Virus genome (UHGV): UHGV-0140594
Length of the DNA stretch: 11,465 nt
From: a virus
Strand: one strand, 5' to 3'
A program made the translations under genes and the position numbers. Below, piece by piece: positions 1-10,838 of the stretch. The notes beneath the pieces were generated by a model. That model was given only the letters and a program-made list of their open reading frames with translations. It did not search any database and had not been told where the DNA came from. The number at the start of each line of letters is the position of its first letter. Within the stretch, counting starts at the first letter, position 1.

Positions 1-1023
1 TCGCAATGGGATGGATGTACGCCGCAGGATACCCAGCGCTATTTATGCGGCGTATGGGCAAAAGCACGCGCAGCGATCTCGCGTGCGGGTATTCATGTAT
101 TTGGGTTTCGGGTTGTTGAGCCTCACCATGACGGGACACCGCACTGGCATATGTTGCTTTTTATGCGTCCGCATGACGTGGACACGGTACGCGATATTCT
201 TTGCTATCACGCCAGAATTACCGATTCTGAAGAACTGCAATCTGAAAAGGCGCTGAAGGCGCGTTTTCATGTTGAAGCTATCGATCCCGCCAAAGGTTCG
301 GCCACGGGCTACATCGCGAAATACATTTCAAAAAATATTGATGGTTTTGCGCTGGATGGTGAGCATGACGAAGAAACCGGCGAAAACCTGCGTGATATGG
401 CTAAGTCCGTTTCTGCATGGGCTTCACGCTGGCGTATTCGTCAGTTTCAGCAGATTGGTGGTGCGCCGGTAACTGTCTGGCGTGAGCTGCGTCGGTTGCG
501 GGATCAGGTGCTGACCGATCGCAGAATGGATGCGGTTCTGGCCGCTGCTGATGTCGGGGACTGGGCTGCATATACCCAGGCGCAGGGCGGTGCACTGGTT
601 GCCCGCCGTGATCTGGTTGTTCGTCTGGCCTATGAAATTACGGAACAGGGCAACGAGTATGCAGAGGACGTGCAGCGCATACAGGGGGTTTATTCTCCTT
701 TGGTTCCTGATTCAGAAGTTTGCACCCGTCTGGTTAAGTGGCAAAAGGTTGCGAAGTTGGCCGAAGCGCCAGCGGAGGCGGGTTTTTCTGGCGGCAACGC
801 CGCCCCTTGGAGTTCTGTCAATAACTGTACGGAGGGGGGAACCCGCAGACGGTTAAAACTGGAATTACGCAGTCGGGGTTTTGATGGTTCTGATGAAGAA
901 ATAGCCATTCTCTTGCGGGGTAGTGGTTTGAGATTTGGTCAGGGCGCTCTGATTTACCGCAACGGGCGGCTTAAAGAGACTCAAAACGAGCCATTGCAGG
1001 AACTGTGGCCGGGGTGGTTATAG
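1..1023 (+). CDS. A: Rolling-circle replication initiator endonuclease (P2 gpA family), 5'-truncated by the window edge
   Basis: Frame 1 is open from nt 1 with no stop until TAG at 1021-1023; the ORF track entry 151..1023 is only the part after an internal ATG. Translation contains EPHHDGTPHWHMLLF (metal-binding motif of this initiator family) and GYIAKYISKN (paired catalytic tyrosines). Confidence 0.85.
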   Translation, partial: SQWDGCTPQDTQRYLCGVWAKARAAISRAGIHVFGFRVVEPHHDGTPHWHMLLFMRPHDVDTVRDILCYHARITDSEELQSEKALKARFHVEAIDPAKGSATGYIAKYISKNIDGFALDGEHDEETGENLRDMAKSVSAWASRWRIRQFQQIGGAPVTVWRELRRLRDQVLTDRRMDAVLAAADVGDWAAYTQAQGGALVARRDLVVRLAYEITEQGNEYAEDVQRIQGVYSPLVPDSEVCTRLVKWQKVAKLAEAPAEAGFSGGNAAPWSSVNNCTEGGTRRRLKLELRSRGFDGSDEEIAILLRGSGLRFGQGALIYRNGRLKETQNEPLQELWPGWL

Positions 1024-1142: not shown

Positions 1143-1349
1143 ATGGATCTTTTGGAGGCGTCGGCACAGCTGGAACGCATTGAGTTATTGGCCAAAATTG
1201 CCCATGTTTACGAAAGTAACCAGAGAGAAAAAACAATCGCTTTGGCCTGGATTGGAGAGCTTGCGGGAGAGGTTCGCGAAATAGTTAAAAAGGAAGGGCA
1301 ACGCCCCCAGAATGGGGGCATTTCAGGCGGCGGGAGTCGCTTTCAGTAG
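1143..1349 (+). CDS. Small hypothetical protein (68 aa) preceded by the SOS box; possible Tum-like antirepressor or moron (function unknown)
   Basis: ATG at 1143 with GGGGG Shine-Dalgarno 4 nt upstream (tgtgggggctaaATG). Predicted helical N-terminal part and Gly-rich tail (GGISGGGSRFQ). Its 3' end overlaps the 3' end of the convergent ogr-like gene by 27 nt. Confidence 0.45.
   Translation: MDLLEASAQLERIELLAKIAHVYESNQREKTIALAWIGELAGEVREIVKKEGQRPQNGGISGGGSRFQ
1303..1319. terminator. GC-rich hairpin GCCCCCA-GAA-TGGGGGC at the convergent gene ends (weak terminator candidate)
   Basis: Perfect 7-bp stem with 3-nt loop, immediately past the ogr-like stop on the minus strand. U-tracts are poor on both strands (AUUUC on plus; U5 lies 11 nt away on minus). 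Confidence 0.3.
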
Positions 1350-1592
1350 GTCTAATGCCATCTGGCGCTGATCGGGTGAAAGTGCATTCAGTATTTTTTG
1401 CACCATCGCATCACCCGTTTTAGCGCTGGGGCTGAGAGTGTGGGAGAACGTCAGATTCATAACAAACGTGTGGCCACACTCAACATCTGAACAGGCACAG
1501 TAAATATCGGCAATCTGCCGGTGCTTCCTGTTTGTTTTACGAATAACAGCCTTTGAGCCGCATTCCGGGCATTCGATTTTCAGAACTCGCAT
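1323..1592 (-). CDS. ogr: Ogr/Delta/B-family zinc-finger late-gene transcription activator
   Basis: MRVLKIECPECG...CACSDVEC gives C-x2-C-x22-C-x4-C, the zinc-finger spacing of P2 Ogr / 186 B / P4 Delta. ATG at 1592 has GGAG 8 nt upstream. The ORF track extends it to an ATG at 1646 that overlaps the portal stop (ATGA); 1592 is preferred because the family places the first Cys within about 8 residues of the N-terminus. Confidence 0.8.
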   Translation of the reverse strand: MRVLKIECPECGSKAVIRKTNRKHRQIADIYCACSDVECGHTFVMNLTFSHTLSPSAKTGDAMVQKILNALSPDQRQMALDLLKATPAA

Positions 1593-1642
1593 ATTCCATG
1601 CTCCAGCTGTTAAATGATGCCTGGATTTTAGCCTCTTTCGCC

Positions 1643-2704
1643 TCATGCCGCACCCTTATCCGTTGATTCTGTGTAACTTAAATCAAAGTTAAGGTGTAGC
1701 CTTTCCGGTATTTCAGGATCGTTGTTAACGGCCAGCATGAAACGGCGCTGGATGGGGGCAATTTCGCTTTTCTTGTAAATGCGTTCAGCCTTTTCAACAT
1801 CCCCCAGTCCGGCAGTGTTCTGCGGGCCAATACCGGCGAGGCCGGCAGGGAAACGGTGCGCGTTCAGAATGTCCTGGGCGCTGATGTTTTTGATGTTGGC
1901 AAATTCATCCTTCGCGGAAATATCCCCCATTTCAATGAATTTGATGGCGTCGCCGTCTCCACCGGGAATGTTTACAAGGATGGTGGAGAAGTTACCGATC
2001 CCTTTGCTGTCACGCAGCTGCTGTTCAATTTCTTCCTCCATTTCGTCCGTCATGCTGGGATCGCGAGTATAAAGAATACCGCCTGTGTGCGCACCGTTGT
2101 GGTAATAGCGGCGTCGGAAAATGACCGCTTCACTGTTAAGTAACGCGGAATGCACACCGCCGATGTAGTCCGGCAGTCCGTAGATATGCTGTTGTGGGTC
2201 ATACATTTTGATGAAGATAATATCTTCTTCTGGCCATACCTGCGGTTCTCCTTCCTGTAACACCACGTAGTCACCGGGCTTATCCAGGGCGTTATCTCTG
2301 ACTTTGCGGCGGCGAATATACAGACCGGGCAAGGGTTCAAGTGCGATCACGTCGCCCCAGCCGTTACGAATTTTGGCAATCGCAATATCCCCAAAGGTTA
2401 TATAGTCAAACGCTGCCGCTTCCAGCTGGTCGTGAATAAGCCCGCCCCCCAGGTAGTCTGAAACAATCATGTTTTTGCGGGCGTGAATGATGCCGCCGTG
2501 CTGACCGTTAAGATTAATCAGCTGTGCGAGTGCCAGCCGGTCAATCGGCTGGGTGAAGTGATCGGCGGCATTGTCGTACCAGATATCACGGTAATCTGTG
2601 CCGGTAGTCAGAACCGGTTCAGGTTTGCCGAATGTGATAATGCTCATCTTTTTTGATTTGTCGCCGCGCTGGTCGCGCTTAACAAAGCGTTTCTTTTTAC
2701 TCAT
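1643..2704 (-). CDS. Q: Portal protein (P2 gpQ-like)
   Basis: 353 aa, directly downstream of the terminase ATPase gene on the same strand with an ATGA stop/start overlap at 2701-2704; AAGGAAAGAGG ribosome-binding site upstream. Size and position match P2 Q; sequence similarity is recalled, not computed. Confidence 0.8.
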   Translation of the reverse strand: MSKKKRFVKRDQRGDKSKKMSIITFGKPEPVLTTGTDYRDIWYDNAADHFTQPIDRLALAQLINLNGQHGGIIHARKNMIVSDYLGGGLIHDQLEAAAFDYITFGDIAIAKIRNGWGDVIALEPLPGLYIRRRKVRDNALDKPGDYVVLQEGEPQVWPEEDIIFIKMYDPQQHIYGLPDYIGGVHSALLNSEAVIFRRRYYHNGAHTGGILYTRDPSMTDEMEEEIEQQLRDSKGIGNFSTILVNIPGGDGDAIKFIEMGDISAKDEFANIKNISAQDILNAHRFPAGLAGIGPQNTAGLGDVEKAERIYKKSEIAPIQRRFMLAVNNDPEIPERLHLNFDLSYTESTDKGAA

Positions 2705-4239
2705 GCTGCCTCTTTCCTTACACCCCAGCGGGATTTAGGTTTGTTTTCATAGTTAAGGGGTTCGTTATGCAGACCGTGGGTAATCGCCCAGAACGCCTCC
2801 GCGTGGCCAGTATCCTGGCTGCGGTCAGCGACAAACGTCATGGCGTTGCCGCTTTGTGTGGTGGTTCGGCGCACAGACATAAAGCTGGCCGCGATCTCTT
2901 TCAGGTTTTTATCCCACTCAATACGTTGGCTTTCCACCACGTCCACCGCTTTCAGCACCAGTTGATTTTTGGTGTTCAGGTCGTAACGAATAGGGACGGC
3001 CACGCGCATGGCAAAATGCTGAATGTTGTCAAAAACACCCTGGCCAATGCCGGTAACGTCTACTCCCAGATAAGTGAAGTTGTATTTTTTGAACAACTGC
3101 TCGATCTGTTTTGCCTGATACCGGAAGTTCATGCCTTTCCAGTAAATCACCTTCAGAACGCGGAACTTCTCCACGGCGAGCATCGGCGGGGCGATGATGA
3201 CAAAACAAGACAAATCACCGCTGCGAGCCGGGTCAAAGCCGCCCCAAACTGGCCTGTCACCGAATGGCCGCGCTGCATCAGGGTTGTGATCCTGCCAGGT
3301 GTCGATTTCAACGCCGCAGGCTTCCAGGTCAGAAAAGCTGAAAACGGAATCTTTGCTGTCAACGAACACGCACATATAGAGCATGTTAAAAGTGGCGTCG
3401 TTGTAGCGGTTGCGAAGTTTCTCGATGTTCGCCAGGTTGAAACCGCCCGCAATGGCATCTTCCATCGTAATGACGTAGCGCCATTGCCCATCCGGGCAGA
3501 GTCGCCCGCCGTCACGCATGTCGTTAAAGGACGGAAACTTAATGGCCGCACGTTTTTTACTGCCCTGTTTCCACTCATCGCCCGTCCAGAACGGGTAAGC
3601 CTGGTGCGTTTTTGCCGATGGCGTTGAAAAATAGGTGGTGCGCCACTTGTCATGTGTGGCCATTGCGCTGGCCACTTCGTTAAGTTTTGCAAAGTTTGGC
3701 ACCCAGAAATATTCGTCACAGTACAGGTGGCCACTGTAGGACTGGGCGGTGTTTTTGTTGGTGGAGAGAAAACGCAGTTCTGCGCCGTTGCTTAAGCGGA
3801 TCGGGTTGCCGGTTAGCGTAATACCGAAATACTGCTCTGCAATATTCACGATGTAAGACCGGAACACTTCAGCCTGTGCCTTTGACGCTGACAGAAAGAT
3901 TTGCGGATCGCCGGTCATCACCGCGTTTTCAAACGCTTCAAACGCAAAATACCAGGTCGCACCGATCTGGCGGCTTTTCAGGATGTTCCTGACAAGCTGG
4001 CCAATGTTATTGCGCAGGTGTTTCTGATATTCAAAAAGATGTTCTTCAGCCCATGCGTCAAAGTCCTCCTGCGTCAGCGACGTAATATCGTTTTTCTTGT
4101 ATTTCCGTTTGCTGCGTGATTCGTCGTCATTGTTGTCCCGCGCAGCTGCTTGCCCGGAACTCTGACCGCTGGCCATTTTCTCTTTGTGTTTATTACTCTG
4201 CGCACGCAGTTTCGTGGCATGAGCAATGAGCATGTCCAT
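2701..4239 (-). CDS. P: Terminase large (ATPase) subunit, gpP-like, main body; N-terminal domain is encoded upstream in another frame
   Basis: 512-aa ORF with a Walker-A-like KSRQIGAT motif and acidic motifs typical of terminase ATPase/nuclease; P2-like position upstream of the portal gene. Its reading frame stays open upstream of the annotated Met to 4281. Confidence 0.85.
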   Translation of the reverse strand: MDMLIAHATKLRAQSNKHKEKMASGQSSGQAAARDNNDDESRSKRKYKKNDITSLTQEDFDAWAEEHLFEYQKHLRNNIGQLVRNILKSRQIGATWYFAFEAFENAVMTGDPQIFLSASKAQAEVFRSYIVNIAEQYFGITLTGNPIRLSNGAELRFLSTNKNTAQSYSGHLYCDEYFWVPNFAKLNEVASAMATHDKWRTTYFSTPSAKTHQAYPFWTGDEWKQGSKKRAAIKFPSFNDMRDGGRLCPDGQWRYVITMEDAIAGGFNLANIEKLRNRYNDATFNMLYMCVFVDSKDSVFSFSDLEACGVEIDTWQDHNPDAARPFGDRPVWGGFDPARSGDLSCFVIIAPPMLAVEKFRVLKVIYWKGMNFRYQAKQIEQLFKKYNFTYLGVDVTGIGQGVFDNIQHFAMRVAVPIRYDLNTKNQLVLKAVDVVESQRIEWDKNLKEIAASFMSVRRTTTQSGNAMTFVADRSQDTGHAEAFWAITHGLHNEPLNYENKPKSRWGVRKEAA

Positions 4240-4244
4240 TTCTT

Positions 4245-4439
4245 TCAGGTCGAGATCGGTTTTGTTATCGCGGCTGTGCTTTCAAAACTGAGCAAATCCG
4301 CCCAGCTGTATTTCTCCGCCCAGTAGTAAACGATCCGCGCATTCGGCAGATTTAATTCAGATGCGATTTCCTTTGGCGTATAGCGGCGCAGATAAAGTGC
4401 GCGAACAACGCCTTTTAATTCTTCAGAGTATTTAGCCAT
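4245..4439 (-). CDS. P: Terminase large subunit N-terminal helix-turn-helix segment (gpP N-terminal-like), in a different frame from the ATPase body
   Basis: 64-aa ORF ...VVRALYLRRYTPKEIASELNLPNARIVYYWAEKYSW... resembles the N-terminal DNA-binding domain of gpP-type terminases. It ends at TGA 4245-4247, only 5 nt before the Met of the 512-aa ORF, and the two frames overlap open across 4248-4281. Confidence 0.6.
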   Translation of the reverse strand: MAKYSEELKGVVRALYLRRYTPKEIASELNLPNARIVYYWAEKYSWADLLSFESTAAITKPIST

Positions 4440-4493
4440 GCGGATAATTATGCCGTGGCTGTGATGAAAAAACGGTGGTGTTAATTCGTGTCT

Positions 4494-4518
4494 GTTCGGT
4501 AAAGCGTTATAACCGAAC
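4494..4518. promoter_or_regulatory. Perfect inverted repeat GTTCGGT-N11-ACCGAAC in the divergent late promoter region; candidate activator binding site
   Basis: 7-bp perfect dyad centred near 4506 in the 161-bp gap between the leftward terminase-portal operon and the rightward scaffold-capsid operon, roughly 55 bp from plausible -10 elements on either side. The P2-type TGT-N12-ACA motif itself is absent. Confidence 0.4.
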
Positions 4519-4600
4519 TGTTCAGAATAAAGCGTAATGCGGTGGTGGTTTTATTTGGCAATAATTGGTTTGCAGCGTCAGGGAGTGGAACAGGGGGGAT

Positions 4601-5404
4601 ATGTCACATTTAAAAACTGACTGGCTGTGTGTTGCTACTGAAGGGGATACCGTTGATGGCAGGGTAATTAAACGGCAGTGGATCATTGATATGGGGGAAA
4701 CCTATGACTATAGCCACTATGTCGCTTTAATCTGGCCAGAACATGAGGATGATTGCGGGAATTTTGGTGAAGTGCTGGAAGCCACCTGGAATGATGGTGA
4801 AGATGGACTGGCACGGTTATATGTCAGCCTTTGCCCGAATATGCGTCTGATTTTCGCAAATCATGAAGATCAGCTTTTGTTCTTCTCCATTGAGCCGGAA
4901 GAAAACTGGCGCGGTAGCGGGCGTACTTACCTGAAAGGGCTGGCGGTAACAGATACACCTGCCAGCGTTGGCACCACACGGCTGCGCTTTAGTAGTCGGC
5001 GCAATAAATTAACAAAGCAGGGATATTACAGCTGTGTAATTTCCCGCGACGGAAAAATTAAACAGGAAGCAAGAATGAAGAACTGGCAGAAACTGTTTGG
5101 TATTAAGCCAAAGTTTGAAGATGAAACGCCGCAGGATAATCCTGCTCCGGATGAAGATAAATTACAGGCGCTTGCCAATGTGGTGAACGATCTGGAAGCG
5201 CGAGTGGCGAAAATTGAAACTCAACTGAATGACGTTCAGGGTGATGTTGACACAATTGCTGAAGTGGTGGATACGCAGGAATTTGCGGCAATTCGCGGTA
5301 ATGCAAAAGAAATCGTAACCCGCTTTAACGAACTGGGTAATAAAAACACCCGTACACCGGGGCGTACTATAAAAGATAAAGCCGGGAAATTTAATTTCCT
5401 GTAA
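4601..5404 (+). CDS. O: Capsid scaffolding protein (P2 gpO-like)
   Basis: EGDTVDGRVI and YLKGLAVTDTPAS correspond to conserved gpO motifs. ATG at 4601 is preceded by AGGGGGG; the ORF track start at 4565 is a TTG with no better ribosome-binding site. Confidence 0.85.
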   Translation: MSHLKTDWLCVATEGDTVDGRVIKRQWIIDMGETYDYSHYVALIWPEHEDDCGNFGEVLEATWNDGEDGLARLYVSLCPNMRLIFANHEDQLLFFSIEPEENWRGSGRTYLKGLAVTDTPASVGTTRLRFSSRRNKLTKQGYYSCVISRDGKIKQEARMKNWQKLFGIKPKFEDETPQDNPAPDEDKLQALANVVNDLEARVAKIETQLNDVQGDVDTIAEVVDTQEFAAIRGNAKEIVTRFNELGNKNTRTPGRTIKDKAGKFNFL

Positions 5405-10074: not shown

Positions 10075-10526
10075 CCAAACGTATTTCGGGTATGTCGTTT
10101 GACACCTATATGGACGGCGATCTGATCCATATCGAGAAAATCACGCTCGATATTACGGATAACAGCGCTGCCGCCCAGACGCGTGGCGTCCCTGATGGGT
10201 ATGTGGATGGCGATGTTGCCGCTGAGGGGGAAATTGAAGTCAGTTCAAAAACACTTCAGGTGCTGACAGCCAAAGCCCGTGCAGCGGGTTCATTGCGTGG
10301 GCTTCCACCACTTGATTTTCTTTTCTATGCCAAAGCCAGTAGCGAAGAAATGAAGGTGGAGACGTTCGGCAATAAATTGCAGGTCAGCAACCTGCTGGAT
10401 ATTGATCCGAAAGGTGGCGGTGTGACCACGCACAAAATCAAATATTTCGTGACCAGTCCGAAATTCGTCAACATCAACGGTGTGCCGTATCTGGAAGCGG
10501 AAGCCACAGAAAACTTGATCGGATAA
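10071..10526 (+). CDS. Structural protein of unknown family (151 aa); tail tube-like candidate
   Basis: ATGA-coupled to the 375-aa gene, GGAGG ribosome-binding site; size and position are consistent with a tube protein partnered to a sheath. No diagnostic motif recognised. Confidence 0.3.
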   Translation: MTKRISGMSFDTYMDGDLIHIEKITLDITDNSAAAQTRGVPDGYVDGDVAAEGEIEVSSKTLQVLTAKARAAGSLRGLPPLDFLFYAKASSEEMKVETFGNKLQVSNLLDIDPKGGGVTTHKIKYFVTSPKFVNINGVPYLEAEATENLIG

Positions 10527-10535
10527 GGGGCAGGG

Positions 10536-10838
10536 ATGCAGGAACATGAAAAGAGCCTTTATTCACTGCTGATCATTGGCGCACTGATTGCCATCGGCAA
10601 TGTGCTGACCAGTAATGACCCAATCACGCCGCGCCTGTTTGCCGGTCGCGTGATCCTGGGCAGTCTGGTTTCAGTGGTGGCCGGGGCGGTACTAATTCAG
10701 ATCCCGGATGCCAGCCCGCTGGCCATTCAGGGGCTGGGGGCGGCGCTGGGGATTGCCGGTTATCAGGCGGTGGAAGTGTGGCTGCGCAGACGTGCAGCGG
10801 GAAAGCAGAACGGGAGCAAGACAAATGACCCTGAGTGA
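10536..10838 (+). CDS. Holin (three predicted transmembrane helices, charged C-terminus)
   Basis: 100 aa; hydrophobic stretches LYSLLIIGALIAIGNVL, GRVILGSLVSVVAGAVLI and LAIQGLGAALGIAGYQAV followed by a basic/polar tail (RRRAAGKQNGSK); lies immediately upstream of and overlapping the endolysin gene. Confidence 0.6.
   Translation: MQEHEKSLYSLLIIGALIAIGNVLTSNDPITPRLFAGRVILGSLVSVVAGAVLIQIPDASPLAIQGLGAALGIAGYQAVEVWLRRRAAGKQNGSKTNDPE

Follow-up and report, generated by a model that had tools for sequence, protein, structure and literature searches.

A conserved four-element array midway between two divergent late promoters of P2-related prophages, a candidate operator for an Ogr-like activator

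The region described here lies on the virus genome UHGV-0140594, of which a stretch of 11,465 nucleotides (in the following, the window) was analyzed. Between the genes for the terminase large subunit (TerL) and the capsid scaffolding protein GpO, the region carries an array of four short sequence elements at 4485-4527. With slightly better than even confidence, we read this array as an operator that is recognized by an Ogr-like activator and fires both of the divergent sigma-70 late promoters. The TerL and portal genes run leftward and the scaffold and capsid genes rightward from a divergent intergenic region of the P-O type. This gene order, taken from RefSeq and Pfam, bears out an initial reading of the letters (the first-pass annotation), which had seen here a divergent late-promoter region of a P2-related phage.

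The array consists of E1 (TTCGT, 4485-4489), E2 (TTCGG, 4495-4499), E3 (CCGAA, 4513-4517), and E4 (CAGAA, 4523-4527). E2 and E3 are the conserved cores of a dyad whose arms in the window are GTTCGGT (4494-4500) and ACCGAAC (4512-4518); the left core is kept from E. coli to Vibrio phages, and the right one is preceded by a conserved TTATAw, with an information-content profile around E3 that reads atATCCGAA. The outer elements are marked by conserved triplets, the TTC of E1 being fixed 7 nt to the left of E2 and the GAA of E4 7 nt to the right of E3. The array unit can thus be written as TTCnn-N5-TTCSG-N13/14-CSGAA-N5-nnGAA; in the window, the spacer is N13 and the whole unit spans 43 bp. Successive elements are spaced by 10, 18, and 10 bp and the conserved TTC/GAA triplets by 10, 20, and 10 bp, which places all four elements on one face of the helix. 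The array is situated exactly midway between two divergent predicted -10 elements, each 42 nt outside the core. For this analysis, we defined an HP1/K139/ESSI-2-type P-O control region by TTCSG-N13/14-CSGAA with a TTC and a GAA 7 nt beyond its two ends, a location between the starts of TerL and GpO, and -10 elements 42 nt outside the core; every one of these elements is found in the window.

The first-pass annotation had described a single perfect dyad, GTTCGGT-N11-ACCGAAC, at 4494-4518. The dyad is present exactly there and has no second match in the window even when up to three mismatches are allowed; for the core TTCGG-N12..15-CCGAA, the chance expectation is 0.04 per window (matches in 8 of 200 shuffled sequences). 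It is, however, not single, but the inner pair of the four-element array, and its perfect 7-bp arms, although real in the window, are lineage-specific, as conservation in relatives is limited to the inner 5 bp per arm. The dyad centre at 4506 is 54 bp from the upstream edges of both CATAAT (4452-4447, minus strand) and AATAAT (4560-4565, plus strand). The claimed distance of about 55 bp to -10 elements of both operons hence proves correct, with exact symmetry between the two sides. Taken as a -55 spacing, it holds for the -10 elements but not for the predicted transcript starts, from which the 54 bp put the centre at about 66 bp.

The P2-type site TGT-N12-ACA had been reported as missing, and indeed no match was found in 4440-4600 with one mismatch allowed. 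Two exact matches elsewhere in the window (3357 and 8509) are intragenic and correspond to chance frequency. Among 79 relatives, a single one carries an exact TGT-N12-ACA in this intergenic region, and the other 78 lack it. Two further repeats within the region were considered as signals and rejected: the direct repeat TAAAGCGTTAT/TAAAGCGTAAT (4500 and 4528) is kept in close relatives only, and the palindrome GAAC-T-GTTC (4515-4523) is lineage-specific.

The conservation of the array was assessed at several phylogenetic distances. In a first alignment of the intergenic region with those of ev040, S.Kent, Cronobacter ESSI-2, Yersinia YenM324, and ev239 (in order of increasing distance), each arm retains no more than its inner five bases (TTCGG...CCGAA, spacer 13 or 14), and the two additional elements 10 bp beyond the arms and both -10 candidates are likewise conserved; the GAA of E4 is invariant in alignment A2. 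A broad scan with a scaffold-protein profile, using one genome per bacterial species, yielded 80 loci from Enterobacterales, Aeromonas, Vibrio, Photobacterium, Psychromonas, Rheinheimera, and others, with scaffold identities down to 33%. In the scanned loci, the dyad lies approximately 100-140 bp upstream of the scaffold gene. The core TTCGG-N13/14-CCGAA is retained where scaffold proteins share only 33-50% identity, namely in Enterobacterales, Aeromonas, Vibrio including K139, Photobacterium, and Psychromonas.

The geometry was quantified on 61 non-identical loci from these five groups with TTCSG-N13/14-CSGAA. On the right side, a -10-like hexamer (A at position 2, T at position 6) is found exactly 42 nt outside the core in 97% of these loci; on the left side, a hexamer of the same kind lies at 42 nt in 72% and at 43 nt in 18%. 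No other offset between 30 and 55 nt exceeds 10%. GAA occurs exactly 7 nt beyond E3 in 56 of the 61 loci and TTC exactly 7 nt to the left of E2 in 53 (xTC in 60; TTC at any other offset in at most four), while the sequence between the elements has diverged freely.

Half-sites vary by lineage (TTCCG, TTCCT/AGGAA, and GGATAT in HP1). In Vibrio phages, the arms are longer and symmetric (TTCGGAT...ATCCGAA). The outer elements are often full pentamers, e.g., in the TTCGG-N5-TTCGG of Vibrio. Psychromonas loci in which all four elements read TTCCG/CGGAA had suggested a concerted switch of specificity. This idea was dropped in view of mixed arrays (L052, L057, L063, L072, L077, and L079), according to which position 4 of the half-site is simply G or C.

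Inverted repeats of this kind might also act by their structure and not as a protein site: the DNA could extrude a cruciform, or a read-through transcript could form a hairpin at the RNA level. A 57-nt stretch does fold as single-stranded DNA to -7.8 kcal/mol (z = -2.7 against shuffled sequences), and seven loci carry the double change TTCCG/CGGAA with complementarity kept. Yet it is the sequence itself and not mere pairing that is conserved, with TTCGG/CCGAA as the inner pair in 49 of the 61 loci; in five loci, the asymmetric TTCCG/CCGAA breaks one pair, and E1 and E4 are usually not complementary past TTC/GAA. The fold is weak, with stems of 5-7 bp, a loop of 11-14 nt, and no T tract. Furthermore, the array lies upstream of both predicted transcript starts and hence would not be transcribed, which argues against a hairpin, and no Rfam family was matched in the window. 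An effect through structure thus appears highly improbable to us.

Within the phage genomes, the array is confined to one place. The complete genomes of ev129, YenM324, and ev239 contain the core dyad once each, and no half-array with a -10 element at 42 nt was found outside the P-O region in the whole genomes of these three phages and K139. The possibility of further late promoters carrying a half-array was consequently rejected, there being no second copy in those four genomes. When the full 16-base pattern was scanned across 2.9 million viral contigs, at least 120 contigs matched. Among the 120 contigs listed, 113 have the array in the interval bounded by the starts of TerL and GpO, and in six more the locus ends close to the array such that one of the two neighboring genes is visible; 119 of the 120 thus fit the placement. 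The remaining one, L191, is a chance match within an unrelated open reading frame (ORF) of 653 amino acids. To locate the late control region in prophages of this group, the 16-base pattern offers a highly specific marker.

The two promoters resemble each other in what they possess and in what they lack. The predicted leftward -10 element, CATAAT (4447-4452, minus strand), is conserved in alignment A2 and lies 42 nt from E2; the rightward one, AATAAT (4560-4565, plus strand), lies 42 nt from E3 and matches the -10 element of the putative promoter P17 annotated in K139. In the profile, a -35 remnant, TGc (TGa in relatives), is discernible at 4538-4540 on the plus strand, 17 bp upstream of the -10 element. 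A sigma-70 scan requiring both hexamers and a terminator scan, both over 4300-4750, found nothing. A recognizable -10 element at a fixed offset is thus combined with the lack of a functional -35 element, as is characteristic of P2-type promoters, and the missing -35 match fits a dependence of both promoters on an activator.

On the leftward side, the start codon of terL (ATG at 4437-4439, minus strand) follows the -10 element after 7 nt only. The conserved N-terminus MAKYS of enterobacterial relatives marks this ATG as the true start. As claimed before, it has no Shine-Dalgarno sequence, which is evident from the 25 nt upstream, TCACAGCCACGGCATAATTATCCGC, and from the immediate context GGCATAATTATCCGC-ATG. 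A gap of 5-8 nt between the leftward -10 element and the TerL ATG is found in 57 of 83 loci, and this makes it likely that the terL mRNA is leaderless or has a 1-nt leader, with a predicted start at 4439/4440. The earlier suggestion of a leaderless or near-leaderless transcript thereby gains comparative support, to which the gene V of P2 adds a precedent, while the 5' end itself is a prediction. In the ev239-type relative, terL has a long leader and the Shine-Dalgarno sequence AGGAAG instead. The rightward transcript is predicted to start at about 4572, with a leader of 29 nt that includes a strong Shine-Dalgarno sequence.

The predicted starts are approximately 132 bp apart. The dyad centre would accordingly be at about -66 of either promoter, and the promoter-proximal pair of elements at -57/-47, centred at about -52. 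These positions bear on a second explanation, according to which only the inner dyad E2/E3 is a site, bound by one Ogr-like dimer at about -66 of both starts, and the outer TTC and GAA are incidental or serve as contacts for the C-terminal domain of the RNA polymerase alpha subunit or in an UP-like manner. E2 and E3 are in fact the most conserved elements, the arms of the Vibrio phages extend symmetrically to TTCGGAT...ATCCGAA, P2 has one site common to pP and pO, and -66 is one helical turn upstream of the -55 of P2, on the same face. On the other hand, the outer elements stand at a fixed 7 nt from the core in 53-56 of the 61 loci, with the same TTC/GAA triplet and often the full pentamer, and HP1 has four to five repeats of one half-site. 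This is the pattern to be expected if one protein reads all four elements. We therefore regard an inner dyad acting by itself as unlikely, though it merits being kept in mind. As for the claim of one shared activator site for both operons, the design documented in the P2 record and the conserved symmetric geometry speak for it, but the unit is made up of four elements and not of one dyad.

The candidate activator is encoded at the end of the leftward operon, as an Ogr/Delta-like zinc-finger protein of 89 amino acids (1323-1592, minus strand). It matches Pfam PF04606 with 71.3 bits against a cut-off of 26.3 (E = 6e-20), and its cysteines are arranged as CPEC-X22-CSDVEC, i.e., the CX2CX22CX4C of the family. 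Its identity is 58% to K139 Orf13 and 28% to P2 Ogr over the 39 amino acids of the zinc finger. No solved structure was found for any relative. Most relatives of the window carry a member of the same Ogr family downstream of the portal gene, and in K139, the ogr homologue has been placed between the portal and rep genes (PMC8537503). Relatives of the protein begin at MRVLK, such that the longer ORF of 107 amino acids from 1646 probably does not give the real start.

The 50-nt gap right after the portal stop codon holds TAAAAT (1625-1630, minus strand), about 33 nt upstream of the ATG at 1592. This candidate -10 element recurs at a similar distance in 44 of 47 distinct enterobacterial-type genes and probably supplies the gene with a promoter of its own. 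Behind the gene, one or more terminator-like hairpins with a T-rich tail (1287-1319, minus strand) are the probable end of the leftward late operon. From its location between the portal gene and these hairpins, co-transcription with the leftward operon and thus positive feedback are to be expected.

Site type and activator type go together: P2, which has a P2-type Ogr, contains no TTCGG-N13/14-CCGAA anywhere in its genome, and the clade studied here is without TGT-N12-ACA. In L038 and L040, a divergent Ogr-like protein coincides with altered half-sites at unchanged geometry. At residue 13, the Vibrio-type proteins that go with TTCGG arrays carry R, and those that go with TTCCG-containing arrays carry S, C, or N; L214, L223, and the enterobacterial type break this rule. 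From the P2 analogy, the missing -35 elements, the single site per genome, the lineage-specific half-site variants, and the case of L038 and L040, we infer that the Ogr-like protein is likely to be the binder of the array. The altered specificity proposed for it in the first-pass annotation stands insofar as the protein is divergent and TGT-N12-ACA is missing; the part that presupposes its binding is carried by the inference just given.

Two side observations concern the Ogr-like gene in other lineages. A LexA (SOS) box, CTGT-N8-ACAG, occurs 57-80 nt upstream of it in 18 of 32 distinct Vibrio-type regions and in none of 47 enterobacterial-type regions. Besides K139 (L089, at about 12,360-12,380), the 18 loci comprise 17 of the Vibrio, Photobacterium, and Psychromonas type (e.g., L086, L053, and L075). 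This sequence distribution suggests direct SOS control of the late activator gene in K139-like phages, but not in the lineage of the window. In HP1 (L090, NC_001697), the interval from orf14 to the portal gene (10417-10709, minus strand) is unannotated and contains an Ogr-like reading frame that is split over two frames, ...YCTVCNS... and ...YYCACKNPLCGHRFVMNMEFSHT..., and HP1 hence seems to have an unannotated gene of the Ogr family, either frameshifted or mis-sequenced.

A different binder has to be considered as well, be it a host global regulator or a phage protein such as CI or a Cox-like or CII-like protein, acting, for example, as a silencer of the late promoters in the lysogen or as an architectural factor. 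The 20 bp between the centres of the inner triplets recall the two-turn spacing of the CII half-sites of phage 186, and some enterobacterial variants of E4 (TAAGAAT) bear a loose resemblance to an RcsB half-box; we count both for this explanation. However, the motif occurs once per genome and outside the immunity and early control region where sites for CI, Cox, and CII are expected, and it is kept across hosts of four orders with lineage-specific variants (TTCCG, TTCCT/AGGAA, and GGATAT in HP1), which suggest co-evolution with a phage-encoded reader. In addition, both promoters are without -35 and need an activator, and in P2-like phages the late activator is the Ogr family. In sum, some other protein as the reader of the array seems rather unlikely.

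Under the four-element reading, the Ogr/Delta protein of the K139 Orf13 type would bind the array as an oligomer, either as two dimers or as a tetramer. This would set the promoter-proximal pair at about -57/-47 of each promoter, near the position of P2 Ogr (-55), and both promoters would be activated, presumably via the alpha subunit of RNA polymerase as by P2 Ogr. The leftward product would be a leaderless terL-portal-ogr mRNA, the rightward one would encode scaffold, capsid, TerS, and the tail and lysis proteins. Activation would be self-reinforcing, with the activator gene last in the leftward operon and additionally equipped with its own putative -10 element (TAAAAT). Finally, the leaderless terL message may keep translation of the terminase low in comparison to the highly expressed scaffold and capsid proteins.

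Several points weigh against this scheme. The accessible literature yielded neither mapped transcript starts nor footprints nor genetic results for phages of this group. The inner dyad, if taken alone as the binding unit, is centred at about -66 and not at the -55 of P2, and the K139 record sets a putative sigma-70 promoter, P16, inside the array. The connection between the Ogr-like protein and the array is drawn by analogy to P2 and from co-inheritance. The compared loci are interrelated, so that the counts overstate the number of independent observations. Lastly, TerL is frameshifted in the window, and the array may therefore no longer work in this particular prophage.

On a broader scale, the array may define a control system of a large P2-related clade, comprising the HP1, K139, and ESSI-2 types with hundreds of contigs from Pasteurellaceae to Enterobacteriaceae and Vibrionaceae. 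Its Ogr activator would use a code and an architecture undescribed in the literature that we reached: one symmetric complex would occupy four half-sites of the TTCSG type, all facing the same side of the helix, and would fire two divergent promoters simultaneously from a rigid geometry with 42 nt to each -10 element, and an obligately leaderless terminase mRNA would set the low-copy versus high-copy stoichiometry of the head proteins. We put this generalization forward tentatively, at somewhat less than even confidence. If it is true, the divergent Ogr branch would have a second deeply conserved operator, and the two would form a natural specificity pair for DNA reading by zinc fingers. The region would represent a compact bidirectional switch under one activator as well as a widely conserved, testable case of a leaderless late mRNA, and promoter annotations in the records of K139-like and HP1-like phages would need to be corrected.

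The genomic surroundings of the array were annotated by means of the RefSeq records of matching prophages and phages, supplemented by Pfam. The Escherichia phage ESSI2_ev129 (Peduoviridae, Quadragintavirus) is 96.8% identical across 98% of the window length, and the region 4240-4800 matches prophages of several complete E. coli chromosomes to 100%. By these matches, the window is a P2-related E. coli prophage of the ESSI-2/Quadragintavirus type. To the left of the array, it encodes the C-terminus of a replication endonuclease (151-1023, plus strand; RefSeq and Pfam), the Ogr-like protein described above, the portal protein (1643-2704, minus strand; Pfam Phage_portal and the RefSeq annotation of an identical prophage), and TerL (2701-4439, minus strand; Pfam and RefSeq). 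To the right follow GpO (4601-5404, plus strand; Pfam Phage_GPO, E = 2e-35), whose ATG at 4601 is preceded by the Shine-Dalgarno sequence AGGGGGGAT, and then the capsid, TerS, head completion, tail, and lysis genes.

The TerL gene of the window lacks 37 bp (junction at 4273-4277) in comparison to phage ev129 and to otherwise 100%-identical prophages. The missing segment is flanked by two CTG repeats, and the resulting frameshift divides the gene into two ORFs of 64 and 512 amino acids; the intact protein has 591 amino acids in E. coli 1919D3 and phage ev129. The deletion junction was absent from the complete E. coli genomes searched. This copy is either a defective prophage or an assembly error. 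A further curiosity is L008 (JAEWTL010000126.1), labeled 'MAG: Bacillota bacterium', which carries an enterobacterial prophage region with a scaffold protein of 97% identity and a control region that, counted from the start of TerL to the end of the array, equals that of the window base for base. The assignment to Bacillota looks like mis-binning or contamination. The P-O region was also considered as the location of a cos site and rejected as such, since the annotated cohesive ends of P2 and HP1 are the genome termini. By analogy to P2, where cos adjoins Q, the site would be expected in the non-coding stretch 1023-1323 between the rep gene and the Ogr-like gene.

The system closest in design is the pP/pO region of P2. 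The late promoters of the P2 type (P2, 186, P4, PSP3, and phiR73) need a protein of the Ogr family and the alpha subunit of the host RNA polymerase, being sensitive to rpoA109. To our knowledge, all Ogr-family activators studied (P2 Ogr, 186 B, the Delta proteins of P4 and phiR73, and PSP3 Pag) are described as reading TGT-N12-ACA (in part PMC3931495). In P2 as in the window, TerL (P) and portal (Q) are transcribed leftward and scaffold (O) and capsid (N) rightward from one short intergenic region, and the two promoters have one symmetric control element between them, at equal distance from both, served by an Ogr/Delta-family activator, which in the window is a candidate. The ogr gene of P2 likewise stands at the end of a late operon, the F operon, with which it has its terminator in common. 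The RefSeq record of P2 lists an 'activator binding site; pO, pP promoters' at 3057-3087 and transcript starts at 3016 (P) and 3127 (O), at 55-56 bp from the site in both cases. The same record places the start of the V-operon transcript at the A of the V ATG (10308), so that P2 provides a precedent for both the shared site and the leaderless message.

One shared activator site is consequently an already known P2 design, and what is new in the proposed operator is its sequence, the four-site layout, and the geometry. The P2 site is a dyad of the TGT-N12-ACA type (TGT-N12-CCA), centred at -55/-56 between starts that are 111 bp apart, whereas the window has TTCnn-N5-TTCGG-N13-CCGAA-N5-nnGAA over 43 bp and predicted starts at a distance of about 132 bp. 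Gene P of P2 has a 23-nt leader, in contrast to the predicted leaderless terL of the window, and P2 possesses two more late promoters, pV and pF, whereas no extra copy of the array was found in the genomes considered here. The promoter pV is the nearest counterpart of the terL promoter, as it is an activator-dependent late promoter of a P2-family phage with a transcript from the A of the start codon, which in the window is a prediction. Gene V, however, encodes the baseplate spike, and its transcript start was mapped experimentally, unlike that of the window TerL, which is deduced from the 6-7-nt gap and its conservation.

The orf16/orf17 region of K139 and HP1 agrees with the window in gene order and in the family of the Ogr-like protein (K139 Orf13, 58% identity). 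In K139, the array reads TTCCG-N5-TTCGG-N14-CCGAA-N5-CCGAA, and its -10 hexamers likewise lie at 42 nt. The version of HP1 is built from GGATAT/ATATCC, repeated four to five times every 10 bp. The K139 record (L089, NC_003313) differs in that it contains no activator site, but only the putative sigma-70 promoters P16 and P17. P16, with its -10 at 15488-15493 and its -35 at 15514-15519, falls inside the conserved array; in place of it, the comparative data for K139 favor TATGAT (15446-15441, minus strand), at a distance of 7 nt from the start codon of TerL. The -10 of P17 is within 2 nt of the hexamer conserved 42 nt from the array. Vibrio-type phages further deviate from the window by their longer arms (TTCGGAT) and by the LexA box before the Ogr-like gene.

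A comparable arrangement has been proposed for the Stenotrophomonas phage Smp131, where PP' and PO' were both assigned to one dyad, at nt 4381-4398, which is read both ways (PMC3931495). As proposed for the window, one symmetric element would serve two divergent late promoters; the Smp131 dyad, however, is of the P2 type, being similar to TGT-N12-ACA, and its assignment is a proposal from the sequence.

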